From NCBI GenBank assembly GCA_964536205.1, contig CAZHVT010000004.1, positions 17,960-81,959 on the forward strand: a DNA stretch of 64,000 nucleotides, written 5' to 3'. Made by a program: the position numbers and the translations under genes. Under the pieces are notes generated by a model. It saw only the letters and a list, made by a program, of their open reading frames with translations, had not been told where the DNA came from and made no database searches. Positions 28,787 through 60,582 of this stretch are shown here, in pieces (position 1 is the first letter of the stretch; every line of letters starts with the position of its first letter). Source of the DNA: an uncultured Gammaproteobacteria bacterium. GTDB taxonomy: Bacteria; Patescibacteriota; Patescibacteriia; Magasanikbacterales; GCA-002688135.

Positions 28787-28961
28787 AAAAGACTAATTTT
28801 ATTGGAATATAGTATAGCAGATTTCCTACAAAAAGTCATTTGTGGATTATGAACGCTAAAAAAGCACATTTTGTTGCATATATTATTACAAAATTAGTAT
28901 CAAATATAATACTAAATTTAGCAAAATAACCAAAAAAAGAAAAGAAAGGGTAAGACTACCA

Positions 28962-28990
28962 TTGACAAAATAACAAAAACATGATAGTAT
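28962..28990 (+). promoter_or_regulatory. strong sigma70-type promoter reading into the GC-rich island
   Basis: TTGACA, 17 nt, TAGTAT, about 60 nt upstream of the first island ORF. Confidence 0.5.
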
Positions 28991-29049
28991 ATGCGCGTAT
29001 TACATGAAGTAGTACGAGAACATTACAAGACGTAGGTTTTGGAGATGAC

Positions 29050-29265
29050 ATGCGGCGAATGTTGCGAAAAATAAAGCGCGTTATCCAGCACTGGCTGGAC
29101 GAGCAACGTGAGGCAATTTTCTTTTTCCGATACCTGTGGGTACGGACGAAAGTGGATTGCAGAATGGGTCTGATCGAGGAGTTTCTCTTCGACCCAAGCG
29201 CGTTGAAACAGCGCTACTTCGAAGAACGAAAGTTCGAGCAATCGCTGGCAGGTCGCTGGCGTTAG
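29050..29265 (+). CDS. hypothetical protein (island gene 1)
   Basis: 71 aa with a GGAG RBS. First ORF after the composition jump. Confidence 0.35.
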   Translation: MRRMLRKIKRVIQHWLDEQREAIFFFRYLWVRTKVDCRMGLIEEFLFDPSALKQRYFEERKFEQSLAGRWR

Positions 29266-29316
29266 CTTTCATATTGAGCCTGTTCCCGGGCTAAAAGAAA
29301 GGGGAGTGGAGCGAGC

Positions 29317-29628
29317 ATGAGTAAGAATTCCGTAGTCGTAGGTGATGGCATCACAGTGACGCGCGCGCAGTTGAAGCGCGCGCAGAAGCAGTATGCCAGA
29401 CGCAAAGGTGGCTTGCCGGGTTTCTGGCAGACAGCACTGGACCTCATGGGTCCGGAGCCGGAGCGGGTCAAGAAGACTCGTTCTGCCAAGCCGCGTCGGA
29501 AGCCGGTTGATACTGGTTTCTCGGAGGGTTACCTCGCTCAGCACAAGGCCGAGATCGGCCTGTCGAGTAAGGATCGGCGCCGCGAGCGTCGGGCCGCATC
29601 GAAGCGGTCTCGTCATCGTGACGAATAA
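29317..29628 (+). CDS. hypothetical highly basic protein (island gene 2)
   Basis: 103 aa. RBS GGGGAGTGGAG. K/R-rich C-terminal half (KKTRSAKPRRKP...RRRERRAASKRSRHRDE). Confidence 0.45.
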   Translation: MSKNSVVVGDGITVTRAQLKRAQKQYARRKGGLPGFWQTALDLMGPEPERVKKTRSAKPRRKPVDTGFSEGYLAQHKAEIGLSSKDRRRERRAASKRSRHRDE

Positions 29629-29800
29629 TCCTCGGCTTCGGCCAACCCCGAATCTACAAACTCTGGACTGTTGTGAAACAGACCACATAACCCGCGAGCA
29701 AGACCAAGGTCAAGTTCGCGGATCTAACTCGGTTGCTCAACAAAGTGTTGAGAGACCGTGAGGATCATTAACCCCATCCCTGGGGCAAAAGAATAAGGGC

Positions 29801-29869
29801 ATGGAGATGCAAATGTTGACGTTTGGCATTATCCAGCTGGCCGTTTTGGTCGGCGCCGTCATCCTGTAA
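29801..29869 (+). CDS. candidate 22-aa hydrophobic peptide (MEMQMLTFGIIQLAVLVGAVIL)
   Basis: Follows leader copy L1 (29757 CGTGAGGAT...AAAAGAATAAGGGC). Followed by hairpin 29893-29922. Confidence 0.3.
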   Translation: MEMQMLTFGIIQLAVLVGAVIL

Positions 29870-30002
29870 GGGTGGCTGGCGGGGGTGTCGCGGTTTACGA
29901 ACCTAGCGACACCTCTCCAACTTGAAAGCTTAATCATTCGATTCAGCTTTCGTGAGGAGACACACTCAAAGACCTTTGAAAAACACATAGTCAGGAGAGG
30001 TA

Positions 30003-30257
30003 ATGAACCCGGAATTGATGAATTTGTTGGTCGTACTGACCATGTGCTGGTTCTGCCTCGGCGCGATTGCTCACATGGTGGGTGGTCAAAAGTGGGCGAA
30101 CAAAGTCTGGAGATGGCCGTTCAAGATGATCGGAAAAGCCATCCGTTGGGTGTTGGTCCAGATTCGAGCTTTCATTCGTGAGGCTCTGGTCGGACTCTGG
30201 AATGCACTGCGAGGACGCAGAGGTAACCAAAACAACAACCGCGGCAACAACCCATGA
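30003..30257 (+). CDS. hypothetical 84-aa membrane protein: one TM helix, then an amphipathic basic helix and an RG/N-rich tail
   Basis: RBS AGGAGAGG. Leader CGTGAGGAG at 29951. Paired hairpins downstream at 30283-30355. Confidence 0.45.
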   Translation: MNPELMNLLVVLTMCWFCLGAIAHMVGGQKWANKVWRWPFKMIGKAIRWVLVQIRAFIREALVGLWNALRGRRGNQNNNRGNNP

Positions 30258-30383
30258 CTCAACCCTAACCCGCGAGCAGCATATGCGTCGCGGCAAGCCC
30301 TGTACCCAACGTGGTACAGGGATCCAAATCGATTTCGCAGTCCTGAATTGCGAAGTCACGAGGATTCATTCACAGGAGGAGAG

Positions 30384-30572
30384 ATGGAGAGTTTTCTGGG
30401 CAATGTCTGGGCGCTAGTCTGCCTTTGGGCTGGTCTGTGCATCTTCTATGCCATGATCAGCGCAGTCGTGATGTTCAAATACTCGGCGTGGGACATGTTC
30501 TTGCTGCCATTCAAGGCGATCATCATGCTGTGCAAAGGTCTCGGGAAACTCGTTCCCAGGACGTTCACCTAA
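30384..30572 (+). CDS. hypothetical 62-aa two-TM peptide
   Basis: RBS AGGAGGAGAG sits directly before ATG 30384. The upstream in-frame Met in the track lacks an RBS. Confidence 0.45.
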   Translation: MESFLGNVWALVCLWAGLCIFYAMISAVVMFKYSAWDMFLLPFKAIIMLCKGLGKLVPRTFT

Positions 30573-30617
30573 GAAGGGTGAGATCAAGAGTCAGGTGAAA
30601 ACACAATAAAAGGAGAA

Positions 30618-30683
30618 ATGATGGGAATCGAACTCATTCTGGGTCAGGCGCTTGTCTGCATCATGTACGCAGCTTTCCGCTAG
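30618..30683 (+). CDS. candidate 21-aa hydrophobic peptide (MMGIELILGQALVCIMYAAFR)
   Basis: RBS AAAAGGAGAA. Followed immediately by paired-hairpin module T1. Confidence 0.3.
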   Translation: MMGIELILGQALVCIMYAAFR

Positions 30684-30697
30684 GAGAGGTGTGTATC

Positions 30698-30750
30698 CGA
30701 GGATCTACGGATCCTCACAACGCAGCCGCGAACCAACATGGTTCGCGGCT
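30698..30750 (+). repeat. paired-hairpin module T1 (GAGGATC-tacg-GATCCTC, then CCGCGAACC-aacat-GGTTCGCGG)
   Basis: Two adjacent perfect stems. About 85% identical to T2 at 30966-31014. Confidence 0.6.
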
Positions 30751-30846
30751 CCAACTCGATCTCTGAGCACAGTATTCGTTCAGACTCGTGAGGAGATCTA
30801 CTGGTTACACCTAACCCCGGGTGGAAAGAAATGGGGAGGAGAGAGA

Positions 30847-30948
30847 ATGGACTGGCCAGGGATTCATCGAGACATGACGATTACAGCGATTTCGCTGGTA
30901 ACAATCATCTTTCTGTTCTGGGCATGCAGCGGCTCAAGCCTCTGCTAG
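30847..30948 (+). CDS. candidate 33-aa hydrophobic peptide (MDWPGIHRDMTITAISLVTIIFLFWACSGSSLC)
   Basis: Leader L2 (30787 CGTGAGGAG...ACCCCGGGTGGAAAGAAATGGGG), RBS GGAGGAGAGAG, followed by module T2. Confidence 0.35.
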   Translation: MDWPGIHRDMTITAISLVTIIFLFWACSGSSLC

Positions 30949-30965
30949 AAATTAACAACACATAT

Positions 30966-31014
30966 CGAGGGTCTACGGATCCTCGCGCAGTCCCGAACCA
31001 ACGCGGTTCGGGGC
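30966..31014 (+). repeat. paired-hairpin module T2
   Basis: GAGGGTC-tacg-GATCCTC, then CCCGAACC-aacgc-GGTTCGGGG. Confidence 0.6.
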
Positions 31015-31109
31015 TCCAAATCGGAAAGATTAATGAAAATTAAGCATCCGTGAGGAGTTACAAATAAAAGCCCTGACCCGGGGTAAAAGAAATGGGTTTT
31101 AGGAGGCAC

Positions 31110-31490
31110 ATGATCTTTTGGATCAGTCGTCACGAGCTGTCCCCGGCGCAGACCAAGGCTATCTTGGATCTGCACGGAGACGTTGAGGTAAAGCGACAGG
31201 AAGTCGTTTTCGATGAGGTGGGTGGTTTGAAATCGCTCATCGAGTCGGTAGATGAAGGAGACTTCGTCTACGCCGTGGCCGGTGCGCCGCACTACTTGGC
31301 AGCCGCTTTGAGTGGTTGTGAGTTCGGTGTTTTTCTCAATCACCCGGGTCGGCGTGCCAATGGCACGTTCGGTCTTCATTGCGTATTTCACGTGGTCGGT
31401 GGAGAGCTGGTAAAGGTCTGGGAAAACCCAGATCCGAACAGCGATGAGGGAGAGCGTCTCGATGTCACAGTCGAGCGTCCCATTCTTTAA
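31110..31490 (+). CDS. hypothetical 126-aa soluble protein (last island gene)
   Basis: Leader L3 (31049 CGTGAGGAG...GACCCGGGGTAAAAGAAATGGG), RBS AGGAGG. The ATG inside AAAGAAATGGG (31092) is in frame and is an alternative start. Confidence 0.45.
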   Translation: MIFWISRHELSPAQTKAILDLHGDVEVKRQEVVFDEVGGLKSLIESVDEGDFVYAVAGAPHYLAAALSGCEFGVFLNHPGRRANGTFGLHCVFHVVGGELVKVWENPDPNSDEGERLDVTVERPIL

Positions 31491-31568
31491 ACCAGAGGGC
31501 GTGCTATGGCACGTCACTCCAACTAAAATTTCAATGTATTGAAGTTTTTGAGGAGAAATGGGAAGAGC

Positions 31569-31596
31569 AAAAAACCGGCATTGTGCCGGTTTTTTG
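31569..31596. terminator. bidirectional terminator between the island and tRNA
   Basis: AAAAACCGGCA-ttgt-GCCGGTTTTTT. Confidence 0.6.
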
Positions 31597-31616
31597 TTTG
31601 CAGAAAAGCTTCTGAC

Positions 31617-31690
31617 TACCAGGGGGGAGAATTGAACTCCCGACCTCAGGCTTATGAGTCCTGCGCTCTAACCTTCTGAGCTACCCTGGT
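31617..31690 (-). tRNA. tRNA with anticodon CAU (elongator Met or Ile2-type)
   Basis: Minus-strand cloverleaf ACCAGGG-TA-GCTCAGAAGGTTAGAGC-G-CAGGA-CTCATAA-GCCTG-AGGTC-GGGAG-TTCAATT-CTCCC-CCCTGGT-A. CCA not encoded. Confidence 0.75.
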
Positions 31691-31746
31691 AGTCAATAGC
31701 TTTATGATTGCTAACGGCGATAGTATAAGAGAAATTGAAATGATCG

Positions 31747-32697
31747 TCAATGTAATGTCATGAGGACAATTTCAGGAGGATTAAACAGGCGTGCGCGAGG
31801 TCCAGATTCTCCTAAACCAGCCGTTACATACAATGTTGTCTCTCCAAATTTAGATGCACCTTTAAATGTATCTCTTGGTAGCTGTGTAGGGCCTGGTTTA
31901 GCAAGTGGACCAATTCCAGGCAAGCGAATCTGCCCGCCGTGCGTATGTCCAGAAACTACCATATCAACTTTGTCTTGCGCATCCAAAATTAAATCCGGAT
32001 TATGACTGATTACAATTGTACGTGCAGATCGATCAGGCAACTCTATCGAATCAAAATCATCAGCCTCACTCCAGATATCTTGTGCACCAACAATATACAA
32101 AGGATCCTCATCAAAAAACTTTGCAACAGCGTCCTCTAATCCTAGTATTCCTAAATCTTGCAAAACCGTTCGCACGTCGTCTGCCTCTTCATAATCCGGA
32201 ATATGTTTTCCGGGAATACCAACTCGAAAAGCATGATTTCCCAAAACAGCAACGGTCGGCGCAATCAAAGGCAATTCACCATACGGCTCAAAATGATAAC
32301 GCGCTTCATTCGCATGATCTCCCAAGAAATAATCACCAGCCATTAAAATTAAATCTGGCTCAATCTCTGCAATCTTGTTCACGACACGAGTAGAAAAATC
32401 TCTTTTCTTGTATGGACCAACATGAATATCAGAAATCAACACAACTTTCTTTGGGGACTTCAGAGCCTTTTCAGCAGGGAAGGAATAATCATATTCACGC
32501 ACAACCAACATCCGAGATTCAATAAAACTACCATAAATTAAAATCAATCCTGGAATCAACACAATCACAGCGAGCAGCCAGCACGGATACGGTTTTTTCG
32601 ACTTACAAGAATGATGATGCAAAAAATATCCTGTCAGCCAAAAGGACAGGACAATACCTCCGAGAATAAAAAAGTCGAAAAAGAGTACTTGAAACAT
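31747..32697 (-). CDS. membrane-anchored calcineurin-like metallophosphoesterase
   Basis: N-terminal TM helices, then the motifs LISDIHVG, MAGDYF, GNHA and GHTHGGQ. Confidence 0.8.
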   Translation of the reverse strand: MFQVLFFDFFILGGIVLSFWLTGYFLHHHSCKSKKPYPCWLLAVIVLIPGLILIYGSFIESRMLVVREYDYSFPAEKALKSPKKVVLISDIHVGPYKKRDFSTRVVNKIAEIEPDLILMAGDYFLGDHANEARYHFEPYGELPLIAPTVAVLGNHAFRVGIPGKHIPDYEEADDVRTVLQDLGILGLEDAVAKFFDEDPLYIVGAQDIWSEADDFDSIELPDRSARTIVISHNPDLILDAQDKVDMVVSGHTHGGQIRLPGIGPLAKPGPTQLPRDTFKGASKFGETTLYVTAGLGESGPRARLFNPPEIVLMTLH

Positions 32698-32734
32698 GAA
32701 GGTATGATAATTGAAATCAGTAAATTGTTCAAAT

Positions 32735-32767
32735 AAAAAACCGAATCATGAGATTCGATTTTTTATT
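32735..32767 (-). terminator. terminator downstream of the tRNA pair
   Basis: AACCGAATC-atga-GATTCGATT, then TTTT. Confidence 0.45.
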
Positions 32768-32838
32768 GCGGGGGTCGGACTCGAACCGGCGACCTGCAGG
32801 TTATGGGCCTGCCGAGCTGCCAACTGCTCTACCCCGCG
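32766..32838 (-). tRNA. tRNA with anticodon CAU and initiator-like features (C1.A72 mismatch, A11:U24)
   Basis: CGCGGGG-TA-GAGC-AGTTGGCA-GCTC-G-GCAGG-CCCATAA-CCTGC-AGGTC-GCCGG-TTCGAGT-CCGAC-CCCCGCA-A. One T-stem mismatch. CCA not encoded. Confidence 0.65.
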
Positions 32839-32902
32839 GAAAAAATCTGAAAACAGAATCTTTCCGCGAAATACAGATCCGTTGATGCTATATACGTAGT
32901 TG

Positions 32903-32989
32903 TGGTACCGGGAGAGAGACTTGAACTCTCACGAGCTTGCGCTCATTGGATTTTGAGTCCAACGCGTCTACCAGTTCCGCCATCCCGGC
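32903..32989 (-). tRNA. tRNA-Leu (anticodon CAA), class II with long variable arm, CCA encoded
   Basis: GCCGGGA-TG-GCGG-AACTGGTAGA-CGCG-TTGGA-CTCAAAA-TCCAA-(long variable arm)-GAGAG-TTCAAGT-CTCTC-TCCCGGT-ACCA. Confidence 0.8.
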
Positions 32990-33178
32990 CTACAGACTTA
33001 CAGTTTGATCAGATGGGCGAGCTATACCTATCTTCCCTCGTTGAATACGACTCATTTCGTCACTCAATCCAGATAGGCATATCTCATCCCATCTGATACA
33101 AGCTGTATCTCGTTTGTGAGCGTCGAAACTATTCCCACCAATCTGTTACGCGCATAAGTATAACTTGAGCGGTAATTA

Positions 33179-38689: not shown

Positions 38690-38798
38690 GAATTATGAAT
38701 CAAGAATTATGAATAATGGACTAAGAGGGGGTTGGGCGACGCCCAGTAATTATAAATCGTCGCTACGCGACACATTCCCATACCTCATTATTCATACT
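38690..38798. repeat. composite element C1: outer ATTATGAAT-word stem enclosing the conserved core ATAAATCGTCGCTACGCGAC
   Basis: GAATTATGAATCAAGAATTATGAATAATGG...core...CCATACCTCATTATTCATACTTCATGATTC. Between the topA 3' end and the relA start. Confidence 0.6.
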
Positions 38799-40997
38799 TC
38801 ATGATTCTTGTTCCTTTTCTGCAGGAGCTTCGGGTTTCTTAACTCGCGCTAATTGTGTGGCAATCTGCTTCTCATCTTCCTCTGTCTTTTTTCTAGAAAA
38901 ATCACATTCCTTATAATTCGAACACTTCACCTTTGTTTTCCCAGACGCCATCAAAACAGATTTACATGCTTCACAAAATTGATTCTCAAGAGGCATCCCC
39001 CACAGCGCATAATCACATGTTGGATATGTTGAACATCCATAGAATATCTTACCACGCCGAGTCTTTCTCTCAACCAATGGAGCTTTGCATGTAAAACACG
39101 GAACACCAATTTCCTTTGGCACAGCTTTTTCTTTCTTATCTTTTTCAAGCGGCTCTGTATGCTTGCAATCTGGATATCCTGAACACGCATAAAATTTCCC
39201 ATAACGCCCCACACGAATAATCACATCCTTTCCACACTCACTACATTTCTTATCCGTTTTCTCCATCACAATATCTTCTTTTTTCACTTCTTCAGTCTTC
39301 TTCTCAAGATTATCTTTAAATGGTTTATAAAAATCTTTGATGATCGGTTTCCATTTTTTCTCACCATCCGCAATATCATCAAACTGTTCCTCCATATGAG
39401 CCGTAAAATCGTAATCCACAATTTTGGGAAAATGCGCCACAAGCACATCATTCACCACCTCACCAATATCAGTAGGGGAGAATCGACGTCGATCCAAACG
39501 CTCAACATAACCACGCGCTTCAATCGTCGCAATAGTCGGTGCATATGTTGAAGGACGCCCAATGCCATGTTCCTCCAAAATCTTCACCAAACTTGCATCA
39601 TTAAATCGTGGAGGAGGTTCAGTGAAATGTTGTTCTGGAATGATGGATTGTACGGTCAATTCCTCTCCTTCTTTTAATTCAGGAAGCGTACGATCTTTCA
39701 ATTGCTCGGGATACACCGCCAAAAATCCATCAAACACAATCACACTTCCTGTTGTTTTGTAGGTATATGTTTTTTTATCAGAACCATCAATGTTCATCAA
39801 AATGGTTGTTAATCGAGATTGTGCAGGATTCATTTGAGATGCCAACGCTCGACGCCAAATCAAATCATACAATTTCCATTGTTGGTCATTCAAAGAATCT
39901 TTCAACTTGTCTGGAGTTAGCTCAACATGTGTTGGACGAATCGCCTCATGCGCCTCCTGCGCAGATTTTGACTTCGTCTTATATTGATGAGGTTTCTCTG
40001 GAATATATTTGTCAGAAAACGTATGTTTTGCATAATCTCGCGCTGCTGCCAAATACTCTTCTGATAAATTCACAGAATCCGTACGCATATACGTAATCAA
40101 ACCAGTCGTTCCTTCTTCACCGGGAGTTTCAATACCTTCATACAATTGTTGCGCTAAACGCATGATATTTTTCGCCGACCATCCAAATTTTGAATGAGCT
40201 GCTTGTTGCAGAGTAGAAGTGGTAAAAGGCGCATTTGGATTTCGCTTTTTATCCTTCTGTTCAATGCTTTTGATTTTTGCTTTCTTGTCCTTGCATGCAT
40301 CCACAATCGCATGCGCATCCTTTTCATTTCCTATACTCAACTTCTCCAATTTCTCATCATCAATTTTAAATAATGCACCTTCAAGCGGATGATCTTTTGC
40401 ATTATCAGAAAGAAACATCCCATCAATACTCCAATATTCGTCTGGTTTAAATTTACGAATTTCACGCTCGCGCTCAACAATCAAACGAACGGCAACAGAT
40501 TGCACACGACCTGCAGACAATCCCCGCGTAACTTTCTTCCACAGAAAAGGGGATAACTCATATCCAACCAATCGATCCAAAACACGTCGCGCTTGCTGCG
40601 CATCAACACGAGCCAAGTCAATTTTACGAGGATTTTCCAAAGCTTTTAAAATGGCTTTTTTGGTAATTTCATGAAACGCAATACGCTTAACTTTCGCAGG
40701 ATCTAATTTCAAAATGTGAGCTAAGTGCCAAGAAATAGCCTCTCCCTCGCGATCTTCATCAGTAGCAAACAAAATCTCATCCGACTCTTTCGCTAACTTC
40801 CGCAATTTCGCAACCTGCTTTTTCTTATCAGGCATCACGTCATACTCCGGCTCAAAATCACCTTCAGTATCAATCCCCATAGTTTTTTTAGGGAGATCAC
40901 GAAGATGGCCATACGAAGATTCAACAACGTATTCTTTGGGTAAAAATTTCGTGATAGTTTTGGCTTTGGTTGGGGACTCTACGATGACAAGTTTCAT
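38799..40997 (-). CDS. topA: DNA topoisomerase I with C-terminal zinc-ribbon repeats
   Basis: TOPRIM N-terminus, active-site Tyr region, repeated C-x2-C...C-x2-C fingers. 732 aa. Confidence 0.95.
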   Translation of the reverse strand: MKLVIVESPTKAKTITKFLPKEYVVESSYGHLRDLPKKTMGIDTEGDFEPEYDVMPDKKKQVAKLRKLAKESDEILFATDEDREGEAISWHLAHILKLDPAKVKRIAFHEITKKAILKALENPRKIDLARVDAQQARRVLDRLVGYELSPFLWKKVTRGLSAGRVQSVAVRLIVEREREIRKFKPDEYWSIDGMFLSDNAKDHPLEGALFKIDDEKLEKLSIGNEKDAHAIVDACKDKKAKIKSIEQKDKKRNPNAPFTTSTLQQAAHSKFGWSAKNIMRLAQQLYEGIETPGEEGTTGLITYMRTDSVNLSEEYLAAARDYAKHTFSDKYIPEKPHQYKTKSKSAQEAHEAIRPTHVELTPDKLKDSLNDQQWKLYDLIWRRALASQMNPAQSRLTTILMNIDGSDKKTYTYKTTGSVIVFDGFLAVYPEQLKDRTLPELKEGEELTVQSIIPEQHFTEPPPRFNDASLVKILEEHGIGRPSTYAPTIATIEARGYVERLDRRRFSPTDIGEVVNDVLVAHFPKIVDYDFTAHMEEQFDDIADGEKKWKPIIKDFYKPFKDNLEKKTEEVKKEDIVMEKTDKKCSECGKDVIIRVGRYGKFYACSGYPDCKHTEPLEKDKKEKAVPKEIGVPCFTCKAPLVERKTRRGKIFYGCSTYPTCDYALWGMPLENQFCEACKSVLMASGKTKVKCSNYKECDFSRKKTEEDEKQIATQLARVKKPEAPAEKEQES

Positions 40998-41003
40998 AAT
41001 TTT

Positions 41004-41090
41004 TCGTAACGAGTAAAGCGTAATGCGTAAAGAGGGATTTCGCCTTCGGCGATCGCTTTACGCTTTGCGCATTACGCTTTACGAACTACC
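41004..41090. repeat. word-built palindrome, family 2 (CGTAAAGCG words around GGGATTTCGCCTTCGGCGATCGC), copy a
   Basis: Right arm overlaps the last 5 codons of the rimK-like gene. Near-reverse-complement of copy b at 44250-44313. Confidence 0.65.
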
Positions 41091-41947
41091 TGAGCAAGAA
41101 AATCCATGATTTCAGCAGCAACATCGATACCAGTAGCCATCTCAAAATGCTGGAAACCTGGATTGCGATTTACTTCCAAGATCTTCATAACTCCTTCATG
41201 CTCGCGCATATCAACCCCAGCAACAGGAATGTGTAACACAGCCGCAGCAGAAACAGCAATATCTCGCATGTTATCTGTCATGTCAAATGATTCGAATTGT
41301 GAACCTAAGTCTGTATTCGATCGAAACTCTCCATCAACAGGAATTTTTTTCACAGCTCCAAGCGCAACACCATCAACAACAAACACACGAAAATCATGCG
41401 GAGCGTCAAGGTATTCTTGCACAATAAAAGTTCCTACAGGGCCAGAAGCCACAGCACGCCGTACATCATTCATTGTATCACAGCGACGAATGTCAGTCCC
41501 ATGCGATCCGTGAATCGGTTTGATGATGACCGGAAATGTAAATGAGGCTTCCACAGCATCTATGGAAGGTTCATGTGTGAGAAAAGATGTGTGAGGAATA
41601 GGGAGTTGCGCGGATTTCAACTTCATCATTTGATGAAGCTTATTCCACACAAATGGCACATCAATCAAAGCAGGATTTGCAACCGTAATATGTTTGCGCT
41701 CCAAAGCTTGCGCAAGAGAAAGATACGCAGAAATAAACTGCGGATGCATATCACGAAAAAAAGCTACATCAAATGAATCGTGTGAAATCTCATTTCCATC
41801 AACAATTATGTGTTCACCAAGCTCGTCCACAGAAAGAGAAATCGATTCCATATGAACAACGCGAGCTTCATGATCGCGCGCGTTGGCTTCCTCAATGATT
41901 CTTAGATTTCCAGGGCTTTCTGGATTGCCCAATATAAGTAGTTTCAT
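41072..41947 (-). CDS. RimK-like ATP-grasp ligase
   Basis: 291 aa, ATP-grasp fold (FPVIIKPIHGSHGTDIRRC..., EYLDAPHDFRVFVV). Confidence 0.7.
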   Translation of the reverse strand: MKLLILGNPESPGNLRIIEEANARDHEARVVHMESISLSVDELGEHIIVDGNEISHDSFDVAFFRDMHPQFISAYLSLAQALERKHITVANPALIDVPFVWNKLHQMMKLKSAQLPIPHTSFLTHEPSIDAVEASFTFPVIIKPIHGSHGTDIRRCDTMNDVRRAVASGPVGTFIVQEYLDAPHDFRVFVVDGVALGAVKKIPVDGEFRSNTDLGSQFESFDMTDNMRDIAVSAAAVLHIPVAGVDMREHEGVMKILEVNRNPGFQHFEMATGIDVAAEIMDFLAQVVRKA

Positions 41948-41949: not shown

Positions 41950-42060
41950 AGCTCGCGACTTAAGAACTTAAGAACCAAAGAACTGAAGAACTCACGCACT
42001 GAAATTGGCAGCTACAAATGAGAGATTGCCGAGTTCATAAGTTCTTACGTTCATCAGTTC
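41950..42060. repeat. word-built imperfect palindrome (AAGAACT/AGTTCAT words) between the rimK-like gene and dprA
   Basis: ACTTAAGAACTTAAGAACCAAAGAACTGAAGAACTCACG...CGAGTTCATAAGTTCTTACGTTCATCAGTTCATAAGT. Confidence 0.55.
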
Positions 42061-43174
42061 ATAAGTGGAATGAGATACGAACGTATCTCATTCCCGATAT
42101 CTGTTTGACGATACGTTTTGTTTCAAGCATTGTCAAGAGTGTCATCACGCGCGCTGCCGGTAAATCCGCCTTCACAATACAATCATCAATATGCAACGCT
42201 TCATGAGATAAAAGACTCAAAATAAGAGCTTCTTCTGGAGATGTTGGTTCATAATCCACGCGAGTTTGCTCATCACTTTCAATCTGAAAAACATTCAAAA
42301 TATCTTCCGAAGATGTCACACAATGCGCACCCATGGCAATTAATGTATTACAACCCTTGGAGGTTTGAGAAAATACAGATCCAGGCGATGCAAACACCTC
42401 ACGATTTTGCTCCAAGGCAACTCGTGCTGTAATCAACGAACCAGATTTTTCTGCAGCCTCAACAACAAATGTCCCGCGCGACAATCCTGAAATAATACGA
42501 TTACGAAGTGGAAAGTGATGTTTGAGTGGGGGAGTGTGTGGGGGGAATTCAGAAATCACTGCTCCGCCAGACTCAATAATTCTCTTTGCTAATTGCGCAT
42601 GTTGTCGAGGATATACATGTGCATCGTCATTTCCCGAACCCAAAACCGCAACTGTATATCCATCAGATTGTAAAGTCTGTTCATGAGCGCGACCATCCAC
42701 ACCCAAAGCCAATCCAGAAATAATAGAACATCCAGACTTCACCAAAGATGGCATAATAGTATCAATAATTTGCTCGCCATAATGCGACATTTTCCGAGAG
42801 CCGACCACTGCAATCGGCATGTCTATACTTGGATTCAAAAACCCACGAACAAACAACACAGCTGGCGGATCAAAAATGTGTGAAAGCAATTCAGGAAAAT
42901 CATCATCAAAAAAACAGACCAACCGAATGTCCTGTTTTGAAAGTAAGCTAGAAAATTTGGAAATATCAAAACGTTTACGATGTTCAATAAACTCATTCAC
43001 CAACCCATCTGTAATGCGTGCATTTTGAAGTTCGGAATGTGACGCTCCCCAAGCACGCTCCATCGAACCAAAATGGTTATGCAGTTGTCGTAATCGAACA
43101 CTGCCGAATTTCGGAAAAGATGTGCATGCTATCCAGTAGTCTTGTTCGGTATGAGGGCTTGACATAAGCTGCAA
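42059..43174 (-). CDS. dprA: DNA processing protein DprA (Smf)
   Basis: Rossmann-like DprA core VVGSRKMSHYG...GLALGVDGRAHE...GSLITAR. Confidence 0.85.
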   Translation of the reverse strand: MQLMSSPHTEQDYWIACTSFPKFGSVRLRQLHNHFGSMERAWGASHSELQNARITDGLVNEFIEHRKRFDISKFSSLLSKQDIRLVCFFDDDFPELLSHIFDPPAVLFVRGFLNPSIDMPIAVVGSRKMSHYGEQIIDTIMPSLVKSGCSIISGLALGVDGRAHEQTLQSDGYTVAVLGSGNDDAHVYPRQHAQLAKRIIESGGAVISEFPPHTPPLKHHFPLRNRIISGLSRGTFVVEAAEKSGSLITARVALEQNREVFASPGSVFSQTSKGCNTLIAMGAHCVTSSEDILNVFQIESDEQTRVDYEPTSPEEALILSLLSHEALHIDDCIVKADLPAARVMTLLTMLETKRIVKQISGMRYVRISFHL

Positions 43175-43517: not shown

Positions 43518-43542
43518 AATTCTCTTTAACAAGCCCAAAACC

Positions 43543-43585
43543 TATTATACTACAAGCCCAAGGGGCTTGTAGTATAATAGGATCT
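43543..43585. repeat. perfect 19-bp palindrome CCTATTATACTACAAGCCC / GGGCTTGTAGTATAATAGG. A third (direct) copy at 43705-43725 overlaps the pth stop
   Basis: The two arms are separated by 3 nt. The copy at 43705 (CCTATTATACAACAAGCCC) is inverted relative to the right arm and lies about 120 nt away, a MITE-like geometry. Confidence 0.55.
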
Positions 43586-43709
43586 TTGCCAAAATTTCCA
43601 TATTGAAGCTCAATTCTACAAAAAGTTTTTTGCCTTAGCTACTGCTAGGGCTGCAAAACTTATTTGAAGAATTGATCATTCAATCTGAAAATTTGTGACT
43701 GAAAACCTA

Positions 43710-44240
43710 TTATACAACAAGCCCCTCAACATAATCTTCCACACCGGAAAAAGTTGAAATAAGTTTTTTGTAATCGTCTGGAGAAAAATTCTTTAAAACA
43801 AGATCAATAGAAGATGTATCATCGCCATCCGGACGCACACCAAGCCTAATCCGCTCAAAATCCTGACTACCAACATGCGAAATAATAGATGCAATCCCTT
43901 TGTGCCCTGCAGACCCTCGGTTAGACTGAATTTTCATGCCACCAACCGCAAGATCAGTATCATCATGAATAACAATCAAATCTGTTGGATCCATTTTGTA
44001 CCATTTCAAAAGCGCGAAAACACATTGACCGGACTCATTCATAAAAGAATTCGGCTTTGCGAACAAAAACTTTGTGCCCTCAAATGTACAATCAGCAACA
44101 AAACAATTTGTCTTTTTCATTAAGCTCCATGCTTCACACTCAAAATGTTCTGCTAAATAATCCACAGCCAAGTATCCAGCATTGTGTCGGGTGAGTTTGT
44201 ATTCATCGCCTGGATTACCAAGGCCTATTACAATTTTCAT
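43710..44240 (-). CDS. pth: peptidyl-tRNA hydrolase
   Basis: Internal Met gives MKIVIGLGNPGDEY...H..G. The longer track ORF adds a non-conserved N-terminus. Confidence 0.9.
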   Translation of the reverse strand: MKIVIGLGNPGDEYKLTRHNAGYLAVDYLAEHFECEAWSLMKKTNCFVADCTFEGTKFLFAKPNSFMNESGQCVFALLKWYKMDPTDLIVIHDDTDLAVGGMKIQSNRGSAGHKGIASIISHVGSQDFERIRLGVRPDGDDTSSIDLVLKNFSPDDYKKLISTFSGVEDYVEGLVV

Positions 44241-44249
44241 ATGAATTTT

Positions 44250-44313
44250 GTAATGCGTAAAGCGATCGCCAAAGGCGAAATCCCGCATTACGCTTTACGA
44301 ATTACGCATTACT
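44250..44313. repeat. word-built palindrome, family 2, copy b
   Basis: GTAATGCGTAAAGCGATCGCCAAAGGCGAAATCCCGCATTACGCTTTACGAATTACGCATTAC. Confidence 0.65.
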
Positions 44314-45709
44314 TCTTTATATAAAACACCATCGGCACCCCCTCAAAACCAAACACACGCCGAATCTGTCGCTGCAAATAACGCAAATACGTTTCATGTA
44401 AATCCGTCTTCGCTTTGAGCTTCAGCTCAAACACAGGAGGAGATATCGCAATTTGTTTAATCGAAAATATTTGTGGGTGTCGTACGCCCTTTCCTTTTGT
44501 GGGCAAATGTTTGCGTTTAATCTTTTCAAATGCTTCTTCAAGTTCTACTGGGTCAAGCCATTTTTTTCGTTCATGATCAATTTTCTCAATCATCGGAAAC
44601 AATCGAAGTACATGTCTTCCTGTCAAAGCTGATAGATACACAATCGGTGCAAAACGCACGAACTTAAAAATCCTCGTAATATATTGTAGATAATGTTCAC
44701 GCGCATCATTATACTTCTGCGATTTATCTGTAATCCGCAAAAAGCTAAAATCTTCATGTCCTTCTGACGTAAGATCCCATTTATTTGCCACAATAATAAT
44801 CGGTTTTTTTGAATCCTCAATCAGCCCAGCCAAGTGTTTATCCTGCGATGAAATCGGCTGTGAGCTATCCAACACAAATAAAATAACATCAGCCTCTTTA
44901 ATTTGATTGATAGATTGCGAAACTCCCTTTTGCTCAATTCCTTTTCCAACTCGAGATTTTTTTCGAATCCCAGCTGTATCAATAAACAAGAAATGATGAC
45001 CTTCCCATGAGACAAGCGTATCAAATGTCTCGCGCGTCGTATGTGGAATATCAGAAACAATAACCGCATCCTCTCCAATTAATTCATTGAACAACGAAGA
45101 TTTCCCAACATTTGGTTTTCCAATGAGTGCTATCTTCACCGTATCTTCGGGAAGCTCTTGGGTTGGTGTTTCAGAAACATCAAGCTGATCATATATAAGA
45201 TCCAACAAATCACCGACCCCTTTTCCTGTGGATGCAGAAACAGGTTCTGGATCACCAAATCCCAGTCCACGCCATTTCTGTTGATGCACTTCAGTAATGA
45301 GTTGCATGGTGTCCGCTTTGTTTGCTGCCAAAATCACAGGTTTTTCAGAAGCCTGTAATTTCAACGCCATTCGTTTATCATCATGATCAAGCGGTGCACG
45401 TACATCGATCACAAACACAATCACATCAGCCTGCTCAATTGCGAGATTCACTTGATGAATAACATCTTCAGCAAACGGATCGTCAGCAGGAGCAACCATT
45501 CCGCCTGTATCAATAAATCTGATGGGCTGTCCTCGCCAATATGCGATTGCGCGGTTGCTCGTTCGAGTTGTTCCCTCAATATCAGTCACGATCGCAGAGT
45601 ACTTCCCAGTAATCACATTAAACAACGTAGATTTCCCAACATTAACACGACCTACTAGCGCTACAGTCGGCATTGAATCTTCTTGTTTTGTGGCAGAGGT
45701 TAAGGTCAT
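44309..45709 (-). CDS. der: GTPase Der/EngA (tandem G domains plus KH-like C-terminus)
   Basis: Two P-loops (GRVNVGKSTLFN, GKPNVGKSSLFN) and two DxxG/NKxD sets. Confidence 0.9.
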   Translation of the reverse strand: MTLTSATKQEDSMPTVALVGRVNVGKSTLFNVITGKYSAIVTDIEGTTRTSNRAIAYWRGQPIRFIDTGGMVAPADDPFAEDVIHQVNLAIEQADVIVFVIDVRAPLDHDDKRMALKLQASEKPVILAANKADTMQLITEVHQQKWRGLGFGDPEPVSASTGKGVGDLLDLIYDQLDVSETPTQELPEDTVKIALIGKPNVGKSSLFNELIGEDAVIVSDIPHTTRETFDTLVSWEGHHFLFIDTAGIRKKSRVGKGIEQKGVSQSINQIKEADVILFVLDSSQPISSQDKHLAGLIEDSKKPIIIVANKWDLTSEGHEDFSFLRITDKSQKYNDAREHYLQYITRIFKFVRFAPIVYLSALTGRHVLRLFPMIEKIDHERKKWLDPVELEEAFEKIKRKHLPTKGKGVRHPQIFSIKQIAISPPVFELKLKAKTDLHETYLRYLQRQIRRVFGFEGVPMVFYIKK

Positions 45710-45722
45710 GTTGTTATGGGAT

Positions 45723-45822
45723 TCGTAAAGCGTAAAGCGTAAAATGTGTCGCGCAGTGACGATCTATAAATCGTCGCTTCAGCGACCAATTTCCCGAGTT
45801 ACGAGTTACGCTTTACGAGTTA
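45723..45822. repeat. composite element C2: outer CGTAAAGCG-word stem enclosing the core ATAAATCGTCGCTTCAGCGAC
   Basis: TCGTAAAGCGTAAAGCGTAAAA...core...TTACGAGTTACGCTTTACGAGTTA. Between the LCP gene 3' end and the der start. Core homologous to C1. Confidence 0.6.
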
Positions 45823-47229
45823 CTAATTTCCTAAATGTCTCTTGGCCCACTCATTTCCAATAATAATCACAATATCAGCATCATTGCCAACTGTAAATGC
45901 TGGAGCTTTCTGAACAATATCCGCTGGAACAAAAGGCGCAATACGAGATAATGCAGCATCAGACTTTTCATCAACAGTAACTTGATAAATTAATGTTTCA
46001 TCAAACGTACGATCTGGTGTATTTCCAATATGTTTCACATTAATTCCTTCATCTTCAAGCAACTGACGCATTGCCGCGGCCATTCCAGCCTCCCACGTTC
46101 CATTTAAAATTGTCACACGAGATTCACGAAATTTCGAAACATCAACTGCATATCGACGTGGTGGTGGCGGAGGATCAACATCAAACATATTATTCACAAA
46201 ATGCGCAACTTCTGAATAATCACCAGCTTTAGGCAACAAGAAATATCCATAATCCGTGTTCAGTTCTTGTAAGAGTGAGTCTGCGCCAATCGTTAAAACG
46301 TGCTGCACTACATCATCTGGATCAACATTTTTCCCTTTTTTCGCAAACTCCAAAATCTCAACTAAATTAAAATCTGTATCAACGTGTTTTTTCAACGTGT
46401 TAAAAAGTGAGGTAAGTTTTGAAGGATTGATGAGTGTTGTTGGTTTAAGAATTTTCGCGCGCAATGCAGTCAGAATTTTTTGTTGGCGATGAGCTCGCGC
46501 AAAATCAGAGCCCTCGCCATGACTACCATGACGCGAGCGCGCATACTCAAGTGCACGATTACCATCCATCAATTCCGTCCCAGCTTCAAATACAACGGTT
46601 TTATAACCGAAGTTATCTGTCGGAAACTGATCATCAATAAACGTTTGTTCAATCGTAACTGACAATCCACCCAGCGTATCCACAATATCCTCAAACGCTC
46701 CAAAATCCACACGAACATAATAATGCATTGGTTCATCCAAAACTGTACTAATCACTTTGCTCGCAAATGCACCGCCATCCCCAGGAAATTCTTCCTCTCC
46801 ATACGCATTTGCATGATTAATTTTTTTCACACCATATCCAGGAATCGCAACTGCCATATCGCGGGGAAGCGAAAGCATCGCAACTTTATTATCAGAAGGT
46901 CGATAGCTCGCAACAATAATTGTGTCAGATAATTGAGGGCCGTCATGCCCAGCTCCACCAACTCCCAGGAACAAGATATTAATACGATCCTCATTAAATC
47001 CATCCAGTAAACGATTTTCAGAAAAAACCAATCGCTTAATCCCACGCACAATCGAAGGCTTTTCACCTTCCGGTAGCGAACCTTCTGTAATCTGCATTAA
47101 AGCACTCACAATATTATATACCCAAAAAAGAGCTCCAATCACGAAAATCAAAAAAAATATACGTAGAACATTACGTATGCTGAACCGAGACTTCGGTCGC
47201 AGATCCATATCACTCTTATATTTGCGCAT
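45823..47229 (-). CDS. LytR-CpsA-Psr (LCP) family cell-envelope protein
   Basis: N-terminal TM, then LCP core (ILFLGVGGAGHDGPQLSDTIIVASY...) and a C-terminal LytR_C-like region. Confidence 0.8.
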   Translation of the reverse strand: MRKYKSDMDLRPKSRFSIRNVLRIFFLIFVIGALFWVYNIVSALMQITEGSLPEGEKPSIVRGIKRLVFSENRLLDGFNEDRINILFLGVGGAGHDGPQLSDTIIVASYRPSDNKVAMLSLPRDMAVAIPGYGVKKINHANAYGEEEFPGDGGAFASKVISTVLDEPMHYYVRVDFGAFEDIVDTLGGLSVTIEQTFIDDQFPTDNFGYKTVVFEAGTELMDGNRALEYARSRHGSHGEGSDFARAHRQQKILTALRAKILKPTTLINPSKLTSLFNTLKKHVDTDFNLVEILEFAKKGKNVDPDDVVQHVLTIGADSLLQELNTDYGYFLLPKAGDYSEVAHFVNNMFDVDPPPPPRRYAVDVSKFRESRVTILNGTWEAGMAAAMRQLLEDEGINVKHIGNTPDRTFDETLIYQVTVDEKSDAALSRIAPFVPADIVQKAPAFTVGNDADIVIIIGNEWAKRHLGN

Positions 47230-52989: not shown

Positions 52990-53062
52990 AGATGGGAATT
53001 ATGAATTATGAATAATGAATCATGGGGTTCTCATTTAAAGAAATCATCCATAATTCCTTATT
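52990..53062. repeat. word-built imperfect palindrome (ATTATGAAT words) between hup and ymdB
   Basis: GGGAATTATGAATTATGAATAATGAATCATGG...CATCCATAATTCCTTATTCGTGATTCATATTTC. Confidence 0.55.
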
Positions 53063-53068
53063 CGTGAT

Positions 53069-58060: not shown

Positions 58061-60061
58061 ATGAACGTCACAGAACTCGCACGACGCCTCCGCGTCAACT
58101 CAAAAACACTCCTACAAACTCTCCCAGAGTTTGGTTTTGATATTGGAGCGCGCGCGATCAAAGTAGATGACAAAATCGCACAACAAATTCAAAGAGCATG
58201 GCCAAAAATTAAACGTGAGCTAGACAGACGAAAAGCAGAAGAAGAAAAAGAACGACGCCTGAAAGATATTGCAGCGCGCCGCGAAGAAGTGGGAACAGTG
58301 GAATTATCAGATGTGTTTACGGTTCGCGAATTTGCAGCAGCACTTAATTTACCTGTGACGACGTTAATGCAAGAATTGATGAAGAATGGAATTTTGGTAG
58401 CGATGAATGAACGAATCGATTTCGACACCGCACAAATCATCGCAGAAGATTTAGGATACGAAGTGATCAAAAAAAATGAAGGAGAAGCTGTCGTTGAAAC
58501 AACATCAGAAGAATCTGAACTAAAAGAAATGCTTGATGCAGATGCAAAAAACGCCACACCACGTCCAGCTGTTATTGTGGTGATGGGACATGTTGATCAT
58601 GGAAAAACGCGATTGCTCGATGCGATTCGCTCAACTAATGTGATCGATACAGAAGCCGGCGGAATCACACAGCATATCGGGGCATATCAAATAGAAAAAC
58701 AAGGAAAGAAAGTGACGTTTATCGATACGCCAGGGCACGAAGCCTTTACTGTCATGCGATCTCGTGGTGCGCGCGTCGCAGACATCGCTATTTTAGTAGT
58801 AGCCGCAGACGACGGAGTCAAGCCACAAACAAAAGAAGCAATCAAAATTATTCATGCCGCAAAACTGCCATACGTCGTCGCACTCAACAAAATGGATAAA
58901 GCAGAAGCAAATCCCGATAAGGTTAAAAAGGAACTATCAGAACATAACGTATTGGTAGAAGAATGGGGAGGCGACGTGCCAATTGTAGAAATCTCTGCAA
59001 AAGAAGGAACGAATATTGATAAAATTTTGGATGTGATTTTGTTAGTCGCGGATGTAAACGCGGATAAAATCACGGCAAATGCAGATCGTGGCGCTATCGG
59101 AACGGTAATTGAATCTCGTGTTGATAAAGGACAGGGTCCGGTTGCGACAGTTCTCGTACAAGCAGGAACATTGAAGAAAAAAGATCCGCTTAATGTAAAC
59201 GGCCGAAATTATGGTCGCGTGCGAGCTTTGAAGAATTATGTAGGAGAGGATTTAAAAGAAGCACTTCCAGGAACACCTGTCAGAATTTTAGGATTTCAAA
59301 GCGCTCCGGAAGTGGGAGACATTTTAGATGTTGATGCTAAAGACGCGGTGAAGCTGAAGAAAACGAAAACATTAAAATCACAAGCAGTTGCATCAGTACT
59401 TACACAAACAACAGAGGACGAAGACGAAGAAGGAAAGGGAAAGAAGATTCTACCAATTGTTGTGAAGGCTGACACACTGGGATCACTTGAAGCTGTCCTT
59501 AACTCACTTGAGAAAATTCAACATGACGAAGTCGGAATTAAAATCGCTTCACAAGGTTTGGGAAATATCACGGATGCAGAAATTCTCAAAGCCGAAGGAA
59601 CAAACACAAGATTTTATGCATTTAATGTGGTGCCAACAGGAACAGCTGCGCATGTCGCTCGTGAAAAGAAATTACCGATTTATGAAACAGCAATCATTTA
59701 CGATTTACTATCAAACGTAACAGCGGAACTTGAAAAATTACTTGAACCAGAAATTATTGAAACACAACACGGAAACGCAACGGTGCTAGAAATTTTCCGA
59801 CAAGATAAAAAAGGACAAATTATTGGGTGTCGTTTGAACGAAGGAAAATTCCGACCGGAAATTAGTATTCGCATTAAACGTGCAGGTGAATTGATGGGAG
59901 AAGGAAAAATCACCATGCTCAAATCTGGAAAATCAGAAACAAAAGAAGTTCCGGGAGGTTCAGAATTTGGAATGAATTTGAAATCGCGTACAACCGTACT
60001 TGTCGATGATGTTTTAGAAGGGTATACTGTTGAGCGAAAGGAGAAAAAACTTAATCTATAG
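58061..60061 (+). CDS. infB: translation initiation factor IF-2
   Basis: G domain ([26 protein letters not shown]) plus C-terminal beta-barrels. 666 aa. Confidence 0.95.
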
Positions 60062-60147
60062 CGATTAGCGTCTAGCGTTTAGCGATTAGTAATTCACTAG
60101 CGAGCTCAGCGAGAAACTAAAAGCTAAACGCTAAAAGCTAAACGCTA
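60061..60147. repeat. word-built palindrome, family 1, copy c
   Basis: GCGATTAGCGTCTAGCGTTTAGCGATTAG...AGCGAGAAACTAAAAGCTAAACGCTAAAAGCTAAACGCT. Confidence 0.65.
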
Positions 60148-60151: not shown

Positions 60152-60463
60152 ATGTTAGAACTCACAGACGACAATTTCAAAAAAGAGGCACTAGAAAGCG
60201 ACGTGCCAGTACTGGTAGATTTCTGGGCACCATGGTGTGGCCCATGCCAAAGAATGTTGCCAGTTATGGATGAGCTCGCAAAAGAGATGGAAGGTAAGCC
60301 AGTAAAAGTAGCCAAAATGAATGTAGATGAAAATCAAACAACGCCAGCAGAATACGGCATCCTCTCAATTCCAACCTTGATAGTATTCAAAGATGGAAAA
60401 GCCGCAGAAACACTCCAGGGCGCACAATCAATAGAACAACTCAAGACAGCGCTTGGGGTTTAG
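60152..60463 (+). CDS. trxA: thioredoxin
   Basis: WCGPC active site. 103 aa. Confidence 0.9.
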   Translation: MLELTDDNFKKEALESDVPVLVDFWAPWCGPCQRMLPVMDELAKEMEGKPVKVAKMNVDENQTTPAEYGILSIPTLIVFKDGKAAETLQGAQSIEQLKTALGV

Positions 60464-60582
60464 AAATCGAGAAATCGAAAAAACGAGAAAACCAGAAATC
60501 GAAAAATCGAAAAATCGAAAAAAATCCCGCAAGGGATTTTTAGCTTTCTCGTTTTCTCGTTTTCTCGATTTCTGGTTTCCTC
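60464..60582. repeat. very long word-built imperfect palindrome (AATCGAAA / TTTCTCG words) with GCAA tetraloop centre; convergent-gene terminator
   Basis: Arms of about 55 nt around AAATCCC-gcaa-GGGATTT, between trxA (+) and the antiporter gene (-). Confidence 0.65.

Follow-up and report, generated by a model that had tools for sequence, protein, structure and literature searches.

Short repeats lodged in the spacers between bacterial genes are known from several lineages. The closest precedents in behavior for the elements reported here are the TAACTGA repeats and the convergent GGGAATC arrays of Xanthomonas, and the closest in architecture and niche are the repetitive extragenic palindromic sequences and their mosaics (REP/BIME) and the miniature transposable elements with inverted repeats (MITEs). 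Our subject is a pair of palindromes, copy a and copy b, in a 64-kb stretch of DNA (the window), together with the larger family of intergenic hairpins to which they belong. TAACTGA repeats, known from the intergenic DNA of marine Beggiatoaceae, cyanobacteria, and Bacteroidetes, are direct repeats. Read in one orientation they place a stop codon in every frame, and they overlap the upstream open reading frame (ORF) by at most 18 nt and end a few nucleotides before the next start, usually without a Shine-Dalgarno sequence (MacGregor 2015, PMC4679880). They occur in ribosomal protein operons, their patchy distribution suggests mobility by no known mechanism, and a single inverted case is on record (PMC4679880). 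Like them, the window elements are built of tandem, stop-bearing units of period 7 in gene-facing orientation. Unlike those direct repeats, their units (CGTAAAG, AGCGNTT, GAATTAT, and others) are paired in inverted orientation, and they differ further in having several heptamer and octamer families, GC-rich cores, hairpins of 25 to 40 kcal/mol, and a host from the candidate phyla radiation (CPR). The GGGAATC heptamers of Xanthomonas are intergenic, mostly between aligned ORFs, and form 70 to 75 inverted repeats of convergent arrays that lie within 50 bp of a stop codon, some overlapping it, and vary in length and sequence among close relatives (Rehm et al. 2015, PMC4692102). These arrays differ from the present ones in being G-rich and quadruplex-forming, in having no stop in the unit, and in having no conserved central core described.

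REPs are short imperfect palindromes, 20 to 40 nt long and often clustered in alternating orientation, each a single GC-rich stem headed by GTAG or CGTC, that lie densely in operon spacers just past stop codons, are lineage specific, and have proposed roles in mRNA stability. The window elements resemble REP/BIME in being short, lineage-specific palindromes in operon spacers directly past stops. They depart from REPs in length (63 to 120 nt), in their AT-rich tandem-heptamer arms around separate GC mini-hairpins, and in arms that start with CGTAA, GTAA, or AGTAA; GTAG adjoins copy a only (CAGGTAGTT followed by CGTAAAG). REP, BIME, and REPIN elements are reported to be mobilized by REP-associated tyrosine transposases (RAYT) (PMC2817692, PMC3116915, PMC3733652). 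No RAYT (Y1 transposase, PF01797) was found among the roughly 40 window ORFs scanned with NCBIfam, Pfam, and precomputed Pfam tables. MITEs have defined terminal inverted repeats related to insertion sequences, and target-site duplications. The present elements likewise have inverted arms of 20 to 30 nt, 83 to 95% complementary, made of tandem units and not of a unique terminal inverted repeat; unlike MITEs, they show no target-site duplication when the filled rimK-topA junction is set against the empty ones of four relatives (below), and there is no insertion sequence within the window. In Coxiella, QMITE1 and QMITE2 overlap many gene 3' ends, either covering the C-terminal 1 to 50 bp of the gene or supplying a new tail and stop, and have given EnhC a 33-residue tail (PMC5896051). 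Enterobacterial elements of the repeat unit/enterobacterial repetitive intergenic consensus (RU/ERIC) type are also reported to overlap gene 3' ends (Delihas, PMC2229807, PMC2759123). The acquisition of a new RimK tail and stop from a small mobile repeat, described below, is a known side effect of such repeats.

In cyanobacteria, short tandemly repeated repetitive sequences (STRR), tandem heptamers in intergenic DNA, were reportedly described by Mazel in 1990, and very small hairpin-forming dispersed repeats nested in other repeats are said to have been described by Elhai in 2008. The window elements share the intergenic tandem heptamers and the nesting of hairpin modules in repeats, and their sequences are unrelated. 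The short core described below contains GCGATCGC, the HIP1 octamer; the window has 3 copies where 1.06 are expected, and 9 of 100 shuffles reach 3. A cyanobacterial origin, considered because of HIP1 and the heptamers, was rejected, since HIP1 is not enriched and the proteins that cluster with EF-Tu and TopA of the window at 90% identity carry the name Parcubacteria group bacterium (a TARA metagenome-assembled genome). After these, TopA is closest to proteins of Magasanikbacteria and other Patescibacteria, at about 55% identity; the GC content is about 41 to 43%. A literature search returned nothing on such repeats in CPR/Patescibacteria and no description of this repeat family. The elements are new, as nested, heptamer-armed, core-bearing palindromes of a CPR lineage, within a known type of small intergenic repeat.

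Two near reverse complements had been noticed from the sequence, at 41004-41090 and 44250-44313, and this relation holds. The copies share a 22-nt core, GGATTTCGCCTTYGGCGATCGC, that occurs exactly twice in the window, at 41035-41056 on the plus strand and at 44262-44283 on the minus strand, and gave no match in 100 shuffles. Copy a (plus) and copy b (minus) are identical without gaps at 52 of 61 positions, with a score of 77, whereas none of about 300 random window segments scored above 33. The plus strands of both copies align too (score 50), each copy being palindromic, and for the same reason the orientation of the copies can be defined only from the asymmetric core. The elements do lie in the intervals first given, but the inverted repeat of copy a spans 41003-41085 by direct reading, Tandem Repeats Finder (TRF), inverted-repeat search, and RNA folding. 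Its left arm (41003-41032) consists of four degenerate heptamers (CGTAACG, AGTAAAG, CGTAATG, and CGTAAAG), its short core (41033-41055) of GGGA, a mini-hairpin (TCGCC-TTC-GGCGA), and TCG, and its right arm occupies 41056-41085; the inverted-repeat search gave 83% complementarity between the arms, with 23 nt between them. Copy b (44250-44312) has a short left arm (44250-44261), a core (44262-44283) in reversed orientation relative to copy a, and a right arm of four heptamers (44284-44312). The arms of both copies are tandem heptamers of the form (C/A)GTAANN, with a TRF period of 7 and about four units each. In the minus-strand (transcribed) RNA, copy a folds with -34.1 kcal/mol (z, -4.9) and copy b with -24.2 kcal/mol (z, -3.2), and the z scores of all the elements folded range from -3.2 to -7.9. 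The element region is 100% identical in three independent assemblies (Logan, JGI, and ENA), the longest of which, L001, covers both copies and the other two copy a only; the copies are therefore not an assembly artifact. Strain polymorphism was considered as well, and independent assemblies showed none in the elements.

Both copies fill the spacer between co-directional minus-strand genes, as the original prediction had stated, and the genes were confirmed by NCBIfam. Copy a lies between the gene at 41072-41947, which encodes an ATP-grasp ligase of the RimK family (TIGR00768 at 159 bits, past the cutoff), and topA (38799-40997), whose ATG is 5 nt downstream of the element. Copy b lies between der (EngA; 44309-45709) and pth (43710-44240), whose ATG, the true start at 44240, is 9 nt downstream. 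The RimK translation ends in DFLAQVVRKA, and its stop (41072-41074) falls within the right arm of copy a together with the R, K, and A codons; this stop is the TAA of the second heptamer, and the gene has no ATGA overlap with topA. The claim that the right arm encodes VVRKA thus stands for R, K, A, and the stop, but only 2 nt of the second V codon are inside the arm and the first V is outside, AQVV being encoded by the 12 nt upstream of the inverted repeat. Copy b reaches the der stop as proposed, the TAA at 44309-44311 being that of its outermost heptamer.

Contigs carrying RimK and TopA orthologs provided four relatives for comparison: L013/L014, the TARA metagenome-assembled genome GCA_002688135.1 (TopA 94% identical to that of the window); L007/L008, GCA_964536565.1 (TopA, 89%); L009, the ENA metagenome assembly ERZ24794645 (RimK, 73%); and L015, the Logan assembly of SRR17478311 (TopA, 71%). 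The gene order LCP-der-pth-x-dprA-rimK-topA-relA is kept in all four. At the rimK-topA junction, L013, L007, L009, and L015 all have a 4-nt ATGA overlap and no element, versus the 83-nt copy a in the window, and the RimK stop in the relatives is the TGA of that overlap. Beyond a shared (F/Y)L, the RimK proteins end in ETI in L013, ESL in L009, ESFPTSHPLI in L007, ATL in L015, and AQVVRKA in the window. Because this junction is empty and the RimK tails are divergent in all four relatives, copy a is a recent insertion, and R-K-A-stop of RimK is, judging from these comparisons, encoded by the element and supplied by copy a. The Der proteins end in F(Y/F)I(K/N)K with the stop at an equal position in the window, L013, L007, L009, and L015, and L007, L009, and L015 are without the element. 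The Der tail is therefore native, and copy b merely abuts its TAA and supplies no residues. An insertion into gene ends, one of two explanations offered at the outset, is accordingly borne out for copy a and contradicted for copy b by the native Der end; the comparison of ortholog C termini, named in advance as the refuting check, refutes an element-derived tail for Der and leaves that of RimK intact.

The other junctions of the cluster differ among the relatives as well. At der-pth, the L013 spacer aligns with that of the window (z, 8.6) and holds an orthologous element of the long-core form; the spacers of L007 and L009 are unrelated, and in L015 pth starts a few nucleotides past the der stop. 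The long form at der-pth together with the empty rimK-topA junction in L013 supports an older copy b and a recent copy a. The LCP-der spacer of L013 is likewise occupied by a long-core ortholog of the window element, which matches it at 87% of aligned positions (z, 18) and contains a larger number of heptamer units; the two genes are separated by 2 nt in L007 and overlap in L015. The dprA-rimK junction holds a CGTAAAG-armed long-core element in L013 versus an unrelated octamer-armed hairpin in the window (z, 0.9), a small AGTAAAG-armed hairpin in L009, a 4-nt overlap in L007, and a spacer of about 1 nt in L015. At topA-relA, the elements of the window and L013 are unrelated (z, -0.3), and the spacers of L007 and L015 are 1 to 2 nt. 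The nonhomologous elements at topA-relA and dprA-rimK indicate turnover. Arrays of period 7 or 8 number 4.2 per 10 kb in the window, 7.8 in L013, 2.1 in L009, 0.64 in L007, and 0.58 in L015. On the evidence of these densities and of the junction differences, the family has multiplied in a single sub-lineage, where elements were gained, replaced, and deleted and their arms changed in length.

Two observations on these junctions may be set beside the comparison. The der-pth spacers of L007 (4677-4810) and L009 (147-267) have a common conserved structure, AAAATCG..CGATTTT followed by ATCCTGAGCGAA.CCGAACGGATCC ... GCTCAGGATGAC, which is unrelated to the heptamer elements. ORF callers push gene starts into the elements, making RimK 314 amino acids long in L013 (6223-7167) and Pth 192 amino acids long in the window (43710-44288); the true starts are the conserved MKLLILGN (RimK, L013) and MKIVIGLGNPG (Pth, window).

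Copies a and b are not isolated in the window. Most spacers of 60 to 125 nt between co-directional genes hold hairpins with tandem heptamer or octamer arms, found by TRF and inverted-repeat search, and the elements either start 0 to 6 nt past the upstream stop or include it and finish 4 to 10 nt before the next ATG. The arms fall into families of heptamers (CGTAAAG, AGCGNTT/TAGCGNT, GAATTAT) and of octamers (ACTTAAGA, AAATCGAA). A common core is present in five of the window elements and in four of L013; it begins with GGGA(A/T) and contains GC-rich mini-hairpins of the form (G)TCGC-loop-GCGA(C), with a ATNTATNAAT linker between them; the short form, that of copies a and b, has one such mini-hairpin and the long form two. 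A covariance model made from these cores recovered the 5 copies in the window, the 4 in L013, and 1 weak copy in L009, and found no core in L007 or L015. In a MAFFT alignment, copies a and b correspond to the long core minus about 34 nt (the first mini-hairpin and linker), a loss that, from the aligned sequences, is a shared derived deletion, and they are the most similar pair (0.89; 85 to 89% over the two comparisons made) among all pairwise core comparisons.

The same core type occurs with different arms. Long cores sit between CGTAAAT/CGTAAAG arms at 16197-16300 (rplO-secY), between CGTAAAG-type arms at 45714-45834 (LCP-der; a long two-hairpin core, with the TAG of the LCP-family gene, 45823-45825, at the arm edge), and between GAATTAT-type arms at 38690-38807 (topA-relA; the topA stop is inside the arm). 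In L013, three copies have CGTAAAG arms and one, at 15345-15465, has CTAAAAG arms. Conversely, the palindromes at 9875-9941 (AGCGNTT arms; rplB-rpsS) and 12658-12726 (within the ribosomal protein gene block) have heptamer arms without any core; they are near-duplicates of one another, down to the order of the variant units, and are related to a third heptamer palindrome at 60059-60147 (TAGCGNT arms; infB-trx), in which the infB TAG is the first unit. Because cores are shared across arm types and whole elements are nearly duplicated, the elements and their modules are dispersed copies and not independent local products.

Searches for the core farther afield returned chance matches. There were no further copies in the 3.8 kb of contig beyond the window. 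Among GTDB species genomes, the core gave 3 matches, all of them coding coincidences (for example, in a coding stretch for AIAEGEI, presumably akin to an HIT-family motif from our reading of the DNA). In metagenome contigs it gave 2 chance coding matches, in a collection that also missed the JGI contig known to carry copy a and so makes for a weak negative, and the long-core linker gave 10 unrelated matches in viral contigs. Rfam, at both gathering and E-value thresholds, recognized only tRNAs in the window and nothing at the elements.

The overlap with gene ends follows from the composition of the arms. CGTAAAG contains TAA, and at a period of 7 successive units place it in frames 0, 1, and 2; since 7 is not a multiple of 3, an ORF entering an intact arm is closed within about 5 codons in any frame. 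Arms of the CGTAAAG type have inward (gene-facing) stops in two to three frames and outward stops in none, and 10 of 11 hairpins have inward stops in at least two frames. Stop-capping is a demonstrated property that explains the gene-end overlaps, and not a demonstrated adaptation. MacGregor (2015) argued along these lines for the TAACTGA repeats.

The explanation that we favor, and consider probable, is that copies a and b are nonautonomous dispersed palindromic repeats whose overlap with gene ends is a by-product of their stop-bearing arms. They are members of a lineage-specific family of small (about 60 to 120 nt), noncoding, nested palindromes in the genome of an uncultured, ultra-small marine bacterium of the Parcubacteria group (CPR), built on a plan of outer arms with 2 to 5 inverted tandem degenerate heptamers, (C/A)GTAANN, around a core that starts with GGGA. 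The family would spread by copying into junctions between co-directional genes, and the arms would lengthen and shorten by slippage. Copy b would be the local descendant of an older der-pth element that lost its first mini-hairpin, and copy a a recent copy of this derived short form, placed between rimK and topA, which formerly overlapped by ATGA. RimK would then have lost its old stop in the overlap and gained R-K-A-TAA from the arm, and Der would have kept its own TAA, which coincides with the first unit. In the mRNA, each element would form a stable intercistronic hairpin without a U-tract, the base of which draws the upstream stop near the downstream start. The data show the family membership, the polarity of the insertion, the tail encoded by the element, and the lack of terminator features. 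As for how the copies were made, we infer that an enzyme or template switching was responsible and that the elements are either neutral or have a function at the RNA level.

Several observations weigh against this explanation. No transposase or RAYT-like gene turned up among the window ORFs scanned, and neither a target-site duplication nor defined ends could be seen at the junction that holds copy a when it was compared with the empty sites of the four relatives; the inverted repeat is also bordered by 12 nt upstream (AQVV) and 5 nt downstream that are unlike those sites. The short core is known in two copies only, the GTDB species genomes and the metagenome collection having yielded chance coding matches. 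The excess of inward stops is not distinguishable statistically from what random heptamers of arm composition give: under a null of one random heptamer of the same composition repeated four times, 52% of elements (0.52) would have such stops, compared with 10 of 11 observed, and there are only about 5 independent arm families, so the claim of selection for inward-facing stops was dropped. Finally, the elements are better conserved than 4-fold degenerate sites. Between the window and L013, amino acid identity is 85 to 97% and 4-fold degenerate sites are 43 to 55% identical, and both the LCP-der element (about 85 to 87% over aligned positions) and the cross-genome cores (about 70%) lie above those sites. 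This hints that the family consensus is under some constraint, which would fit recognition by a mobility enzyme as well as a host RNA or DNA function.

Conservation is also an argument for the main alternative, namely, that these are intercistronic RNA elements with a host function, kept by selection, in which the overlap with gene ends is part of the design. They could be sites of RNase III or RNase Y processing, mRNA-stabilizing stem-loops, protein-binding arrays (a triplet every 7 nt), or devices for termination-reinitiation coupling without a Shine-Dalgarno sequence. Beside the family consensus, the orthologous LCP-der and der-pth copies exceed 4-fold sites in their conservation from the window to L013, and the elements fill their spacers exactly, 0 to 6 nt from or overlapping the upstream stop and 4 to 10 nt before the next ATG. 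They occur within ribosomal protein operons, the scanned window ORFs include no transposase, and translational regulation was proposed for the similarly placed TAACTGA repeats (MacGregor 2015). Shine-Dalgarno-like motifs are rare, lying upstream of only 10 of the 64 window genes. These few motifs, the A/T-rich start contexts of the window (..AATAATATG), and the many stops that lie 1 to 5 nt ahead of the next start point to translation that is independent of Shine-Dalgarno sequences and dependent on coupling. Against a host function, the same operons in L007 and L015 do without such hairpins, the genes simply overlapping, and close relatives have nonhomologous elements at the same junction. The core points in opposite directions in copies a and b, and cores withstand large deletions. 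In L013, a systematic difference separates left from right arms (AGTAAAG versus CGTAAAG), so that pairing is not strictly kept, and there is no Rfam family match. We therefore regard a selected host function as possible, though rather unlikely.

Mobility and function might also be joined, in a reading that we hold to be slightly more doubtful still. The family would be adapted to zero-length or overlapping junctions in an ultracompact genome without Shine-Dalgarno sequences, with arms serving as frame-independent stop caps and a fold that keeps stop and start adjacent. In such a family, the upstream stop and downstream start, 60 to 110 nt apart, may be adjacent at the base of the stem, and a ribosome terminating in the 5' arm may melt the stem and free the next start, so that coupling survives the insertion. 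HutP is a ring-shaped RNA-binding protein that acts on UAG-N4 repeats; by analogy, GTAA or TAG every 7 nt could be read by a putative ring protein of the HutP type, and a selfish repeat could thereby become a posttranscriptional regulon.

A third alternative is an origin in place, by slippage at a gene-end stop followed by a template-switch palindrome, without any movement, the likeness of copies a and b being due to convergence or gene conversion. The number of arm units does vary between orthologous copies, several arrays start exactly at a native stop (der, infB, and the gene ending at 10705), and the 3' end of pth is duplicated downstream as an inverted pair, such that gene-end sequence can evidently seed palindromes. 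However, convergence cannot account for a 22-nt nonrepetitive core that has one and the same derived deletion at two loci 3.2 kb from each other, and since one of the two loci is empty in all relatives, there was no resident target for gene conversion. One core type within different arm families, and near-identical whole elements at 9875 and 12658, likewise speak against local origin, which we consider improbable.

The last alternative, offered from the start as terminators grown into coding sequence, is that the hairpins act as Rho-independent terminators or attenuators and that their stems have extended into gene 3' ends, and it is not supported: stable hairpins directly past stop codons and a long-core mini-hairpin (38772-38758) followed by ATTTATAATT, weakly terminator-like, speak in its favor, but on the transcribed strand no T-run follows copy a (AAAAATT) or copy b (AAAATTC), a terminator consensus scan called neither copy, canonical terminators with a GC stem and T-run exist in the same window at about 6190, 28270, 50458, 52525, and 57285 (convergent or operon ends), the sister elements lie within the S10/spc ribosomal protein operons (for example, rplB-rpsS and rplO-secY), where termination would be harmful, and the flanking genes overlap at these junctions in relatives, all of which makes this the least probable explanation. 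Having no U-tract, an element of this family is not an intrinsic terminator, and we hold it unlikely that copies a and b act as terminators.

Returning to the window, three further hairpins belong to the inventory. An octamer-armed hairpin at 41958-42066 occupies the dprA-rimK junction, with the stop of dprA (a minus-strand gene also confirmed by NCBIfam) inside its arm, and an element at 52996-53063 lies between an HU-family gene and the YmdB gene. The hairpin at 60462-60584, between trx and a convergent Na/Ca exchanger gene, is the largest in the window; its arms comprise about 7 octamers (AAATCGAA), enclose a small GC hairpin that has a T-run (AAAAAATCCCGCAAGGGATTTTT), and contain no stop codon in any frame, and the genes on either side are convergent. 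A half element occurs between rplV and rpsC at 10702-10729, where a single GAATTAT-type array with a leader has the rplV stop in its first unit and is nearly identical to the 3' arm and leader of the topA-relA element (38690-38720). The LCP-family gene next to der occupies 45823-47229 on the minus strand and was also identified by NCBIfam.

Other structures were seen in passing. The 3' end of pth, GGGCTTGTTGTATAATAGGTTTT (encoding GLVV and the stop), recurs within 43537-43724, with 1 mismatch at 43559-43537 and inverted at 43563-43581. These repeats form a perfect 19-bp palindrome, which is separated from the gene end by a long imperfect hairpin of about 105 nt (approximately 43590-43690). L013 lacks the entire 43537-43724 block, which looks like a separate, putatively MITE-like insertion with gene-end sequence directly repeated (about 23 nt) on its two sides. 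Within 15345-15990 of L013, a 121-amino-acid ORF of the 23S rRNA IVS protein/bAvd family (PF05635) is bracketed by inverted heptamer arrays, (TTTCAGC)n at 15564-15597 and (CTGACAG)n at 15957-15986, and ends in QSDS with its TGA inside the array; just upstream are a tRNA-like gene (recognized by eye) and the long-core heptamer hairpin at 15345-15465. Here a whole gene appears to sit as cargo between heptamer arms. A 107-amino-acid ORF with no Pfam match lies at 4513-4836 between fusA and tuf, in the order rpsL-rpsG-fusA-orf107-tuf-rpsJ. The stretch from 28800 to 33000 has a GC content of 0.48 compared with about 0.41 and holds several small ORFs without a Pfam match; three tRNA genes (31617-31690, 32766-32838, and 32906-32989) adjoin it, and it may be an island or an integration hot spot.

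The genomes of CPR/Patescibacteria are seen as minimal and dense, with genes that often overlap. A sub-lineage in which most operon junctions are filled, alongside sisters of the same gene order in which they are empty, is a natural experiment on the invasion of compact operons, without their being broken, by selfish or regulatory hairpins. The elements alter annotated gene ends, through the new RimK tail and through the start extensions made by ORF callers. Should the hairpins prove to maintain translational coupling or to bind a regulator, they would give access to gene expression in organisms beyond the reach of culture.

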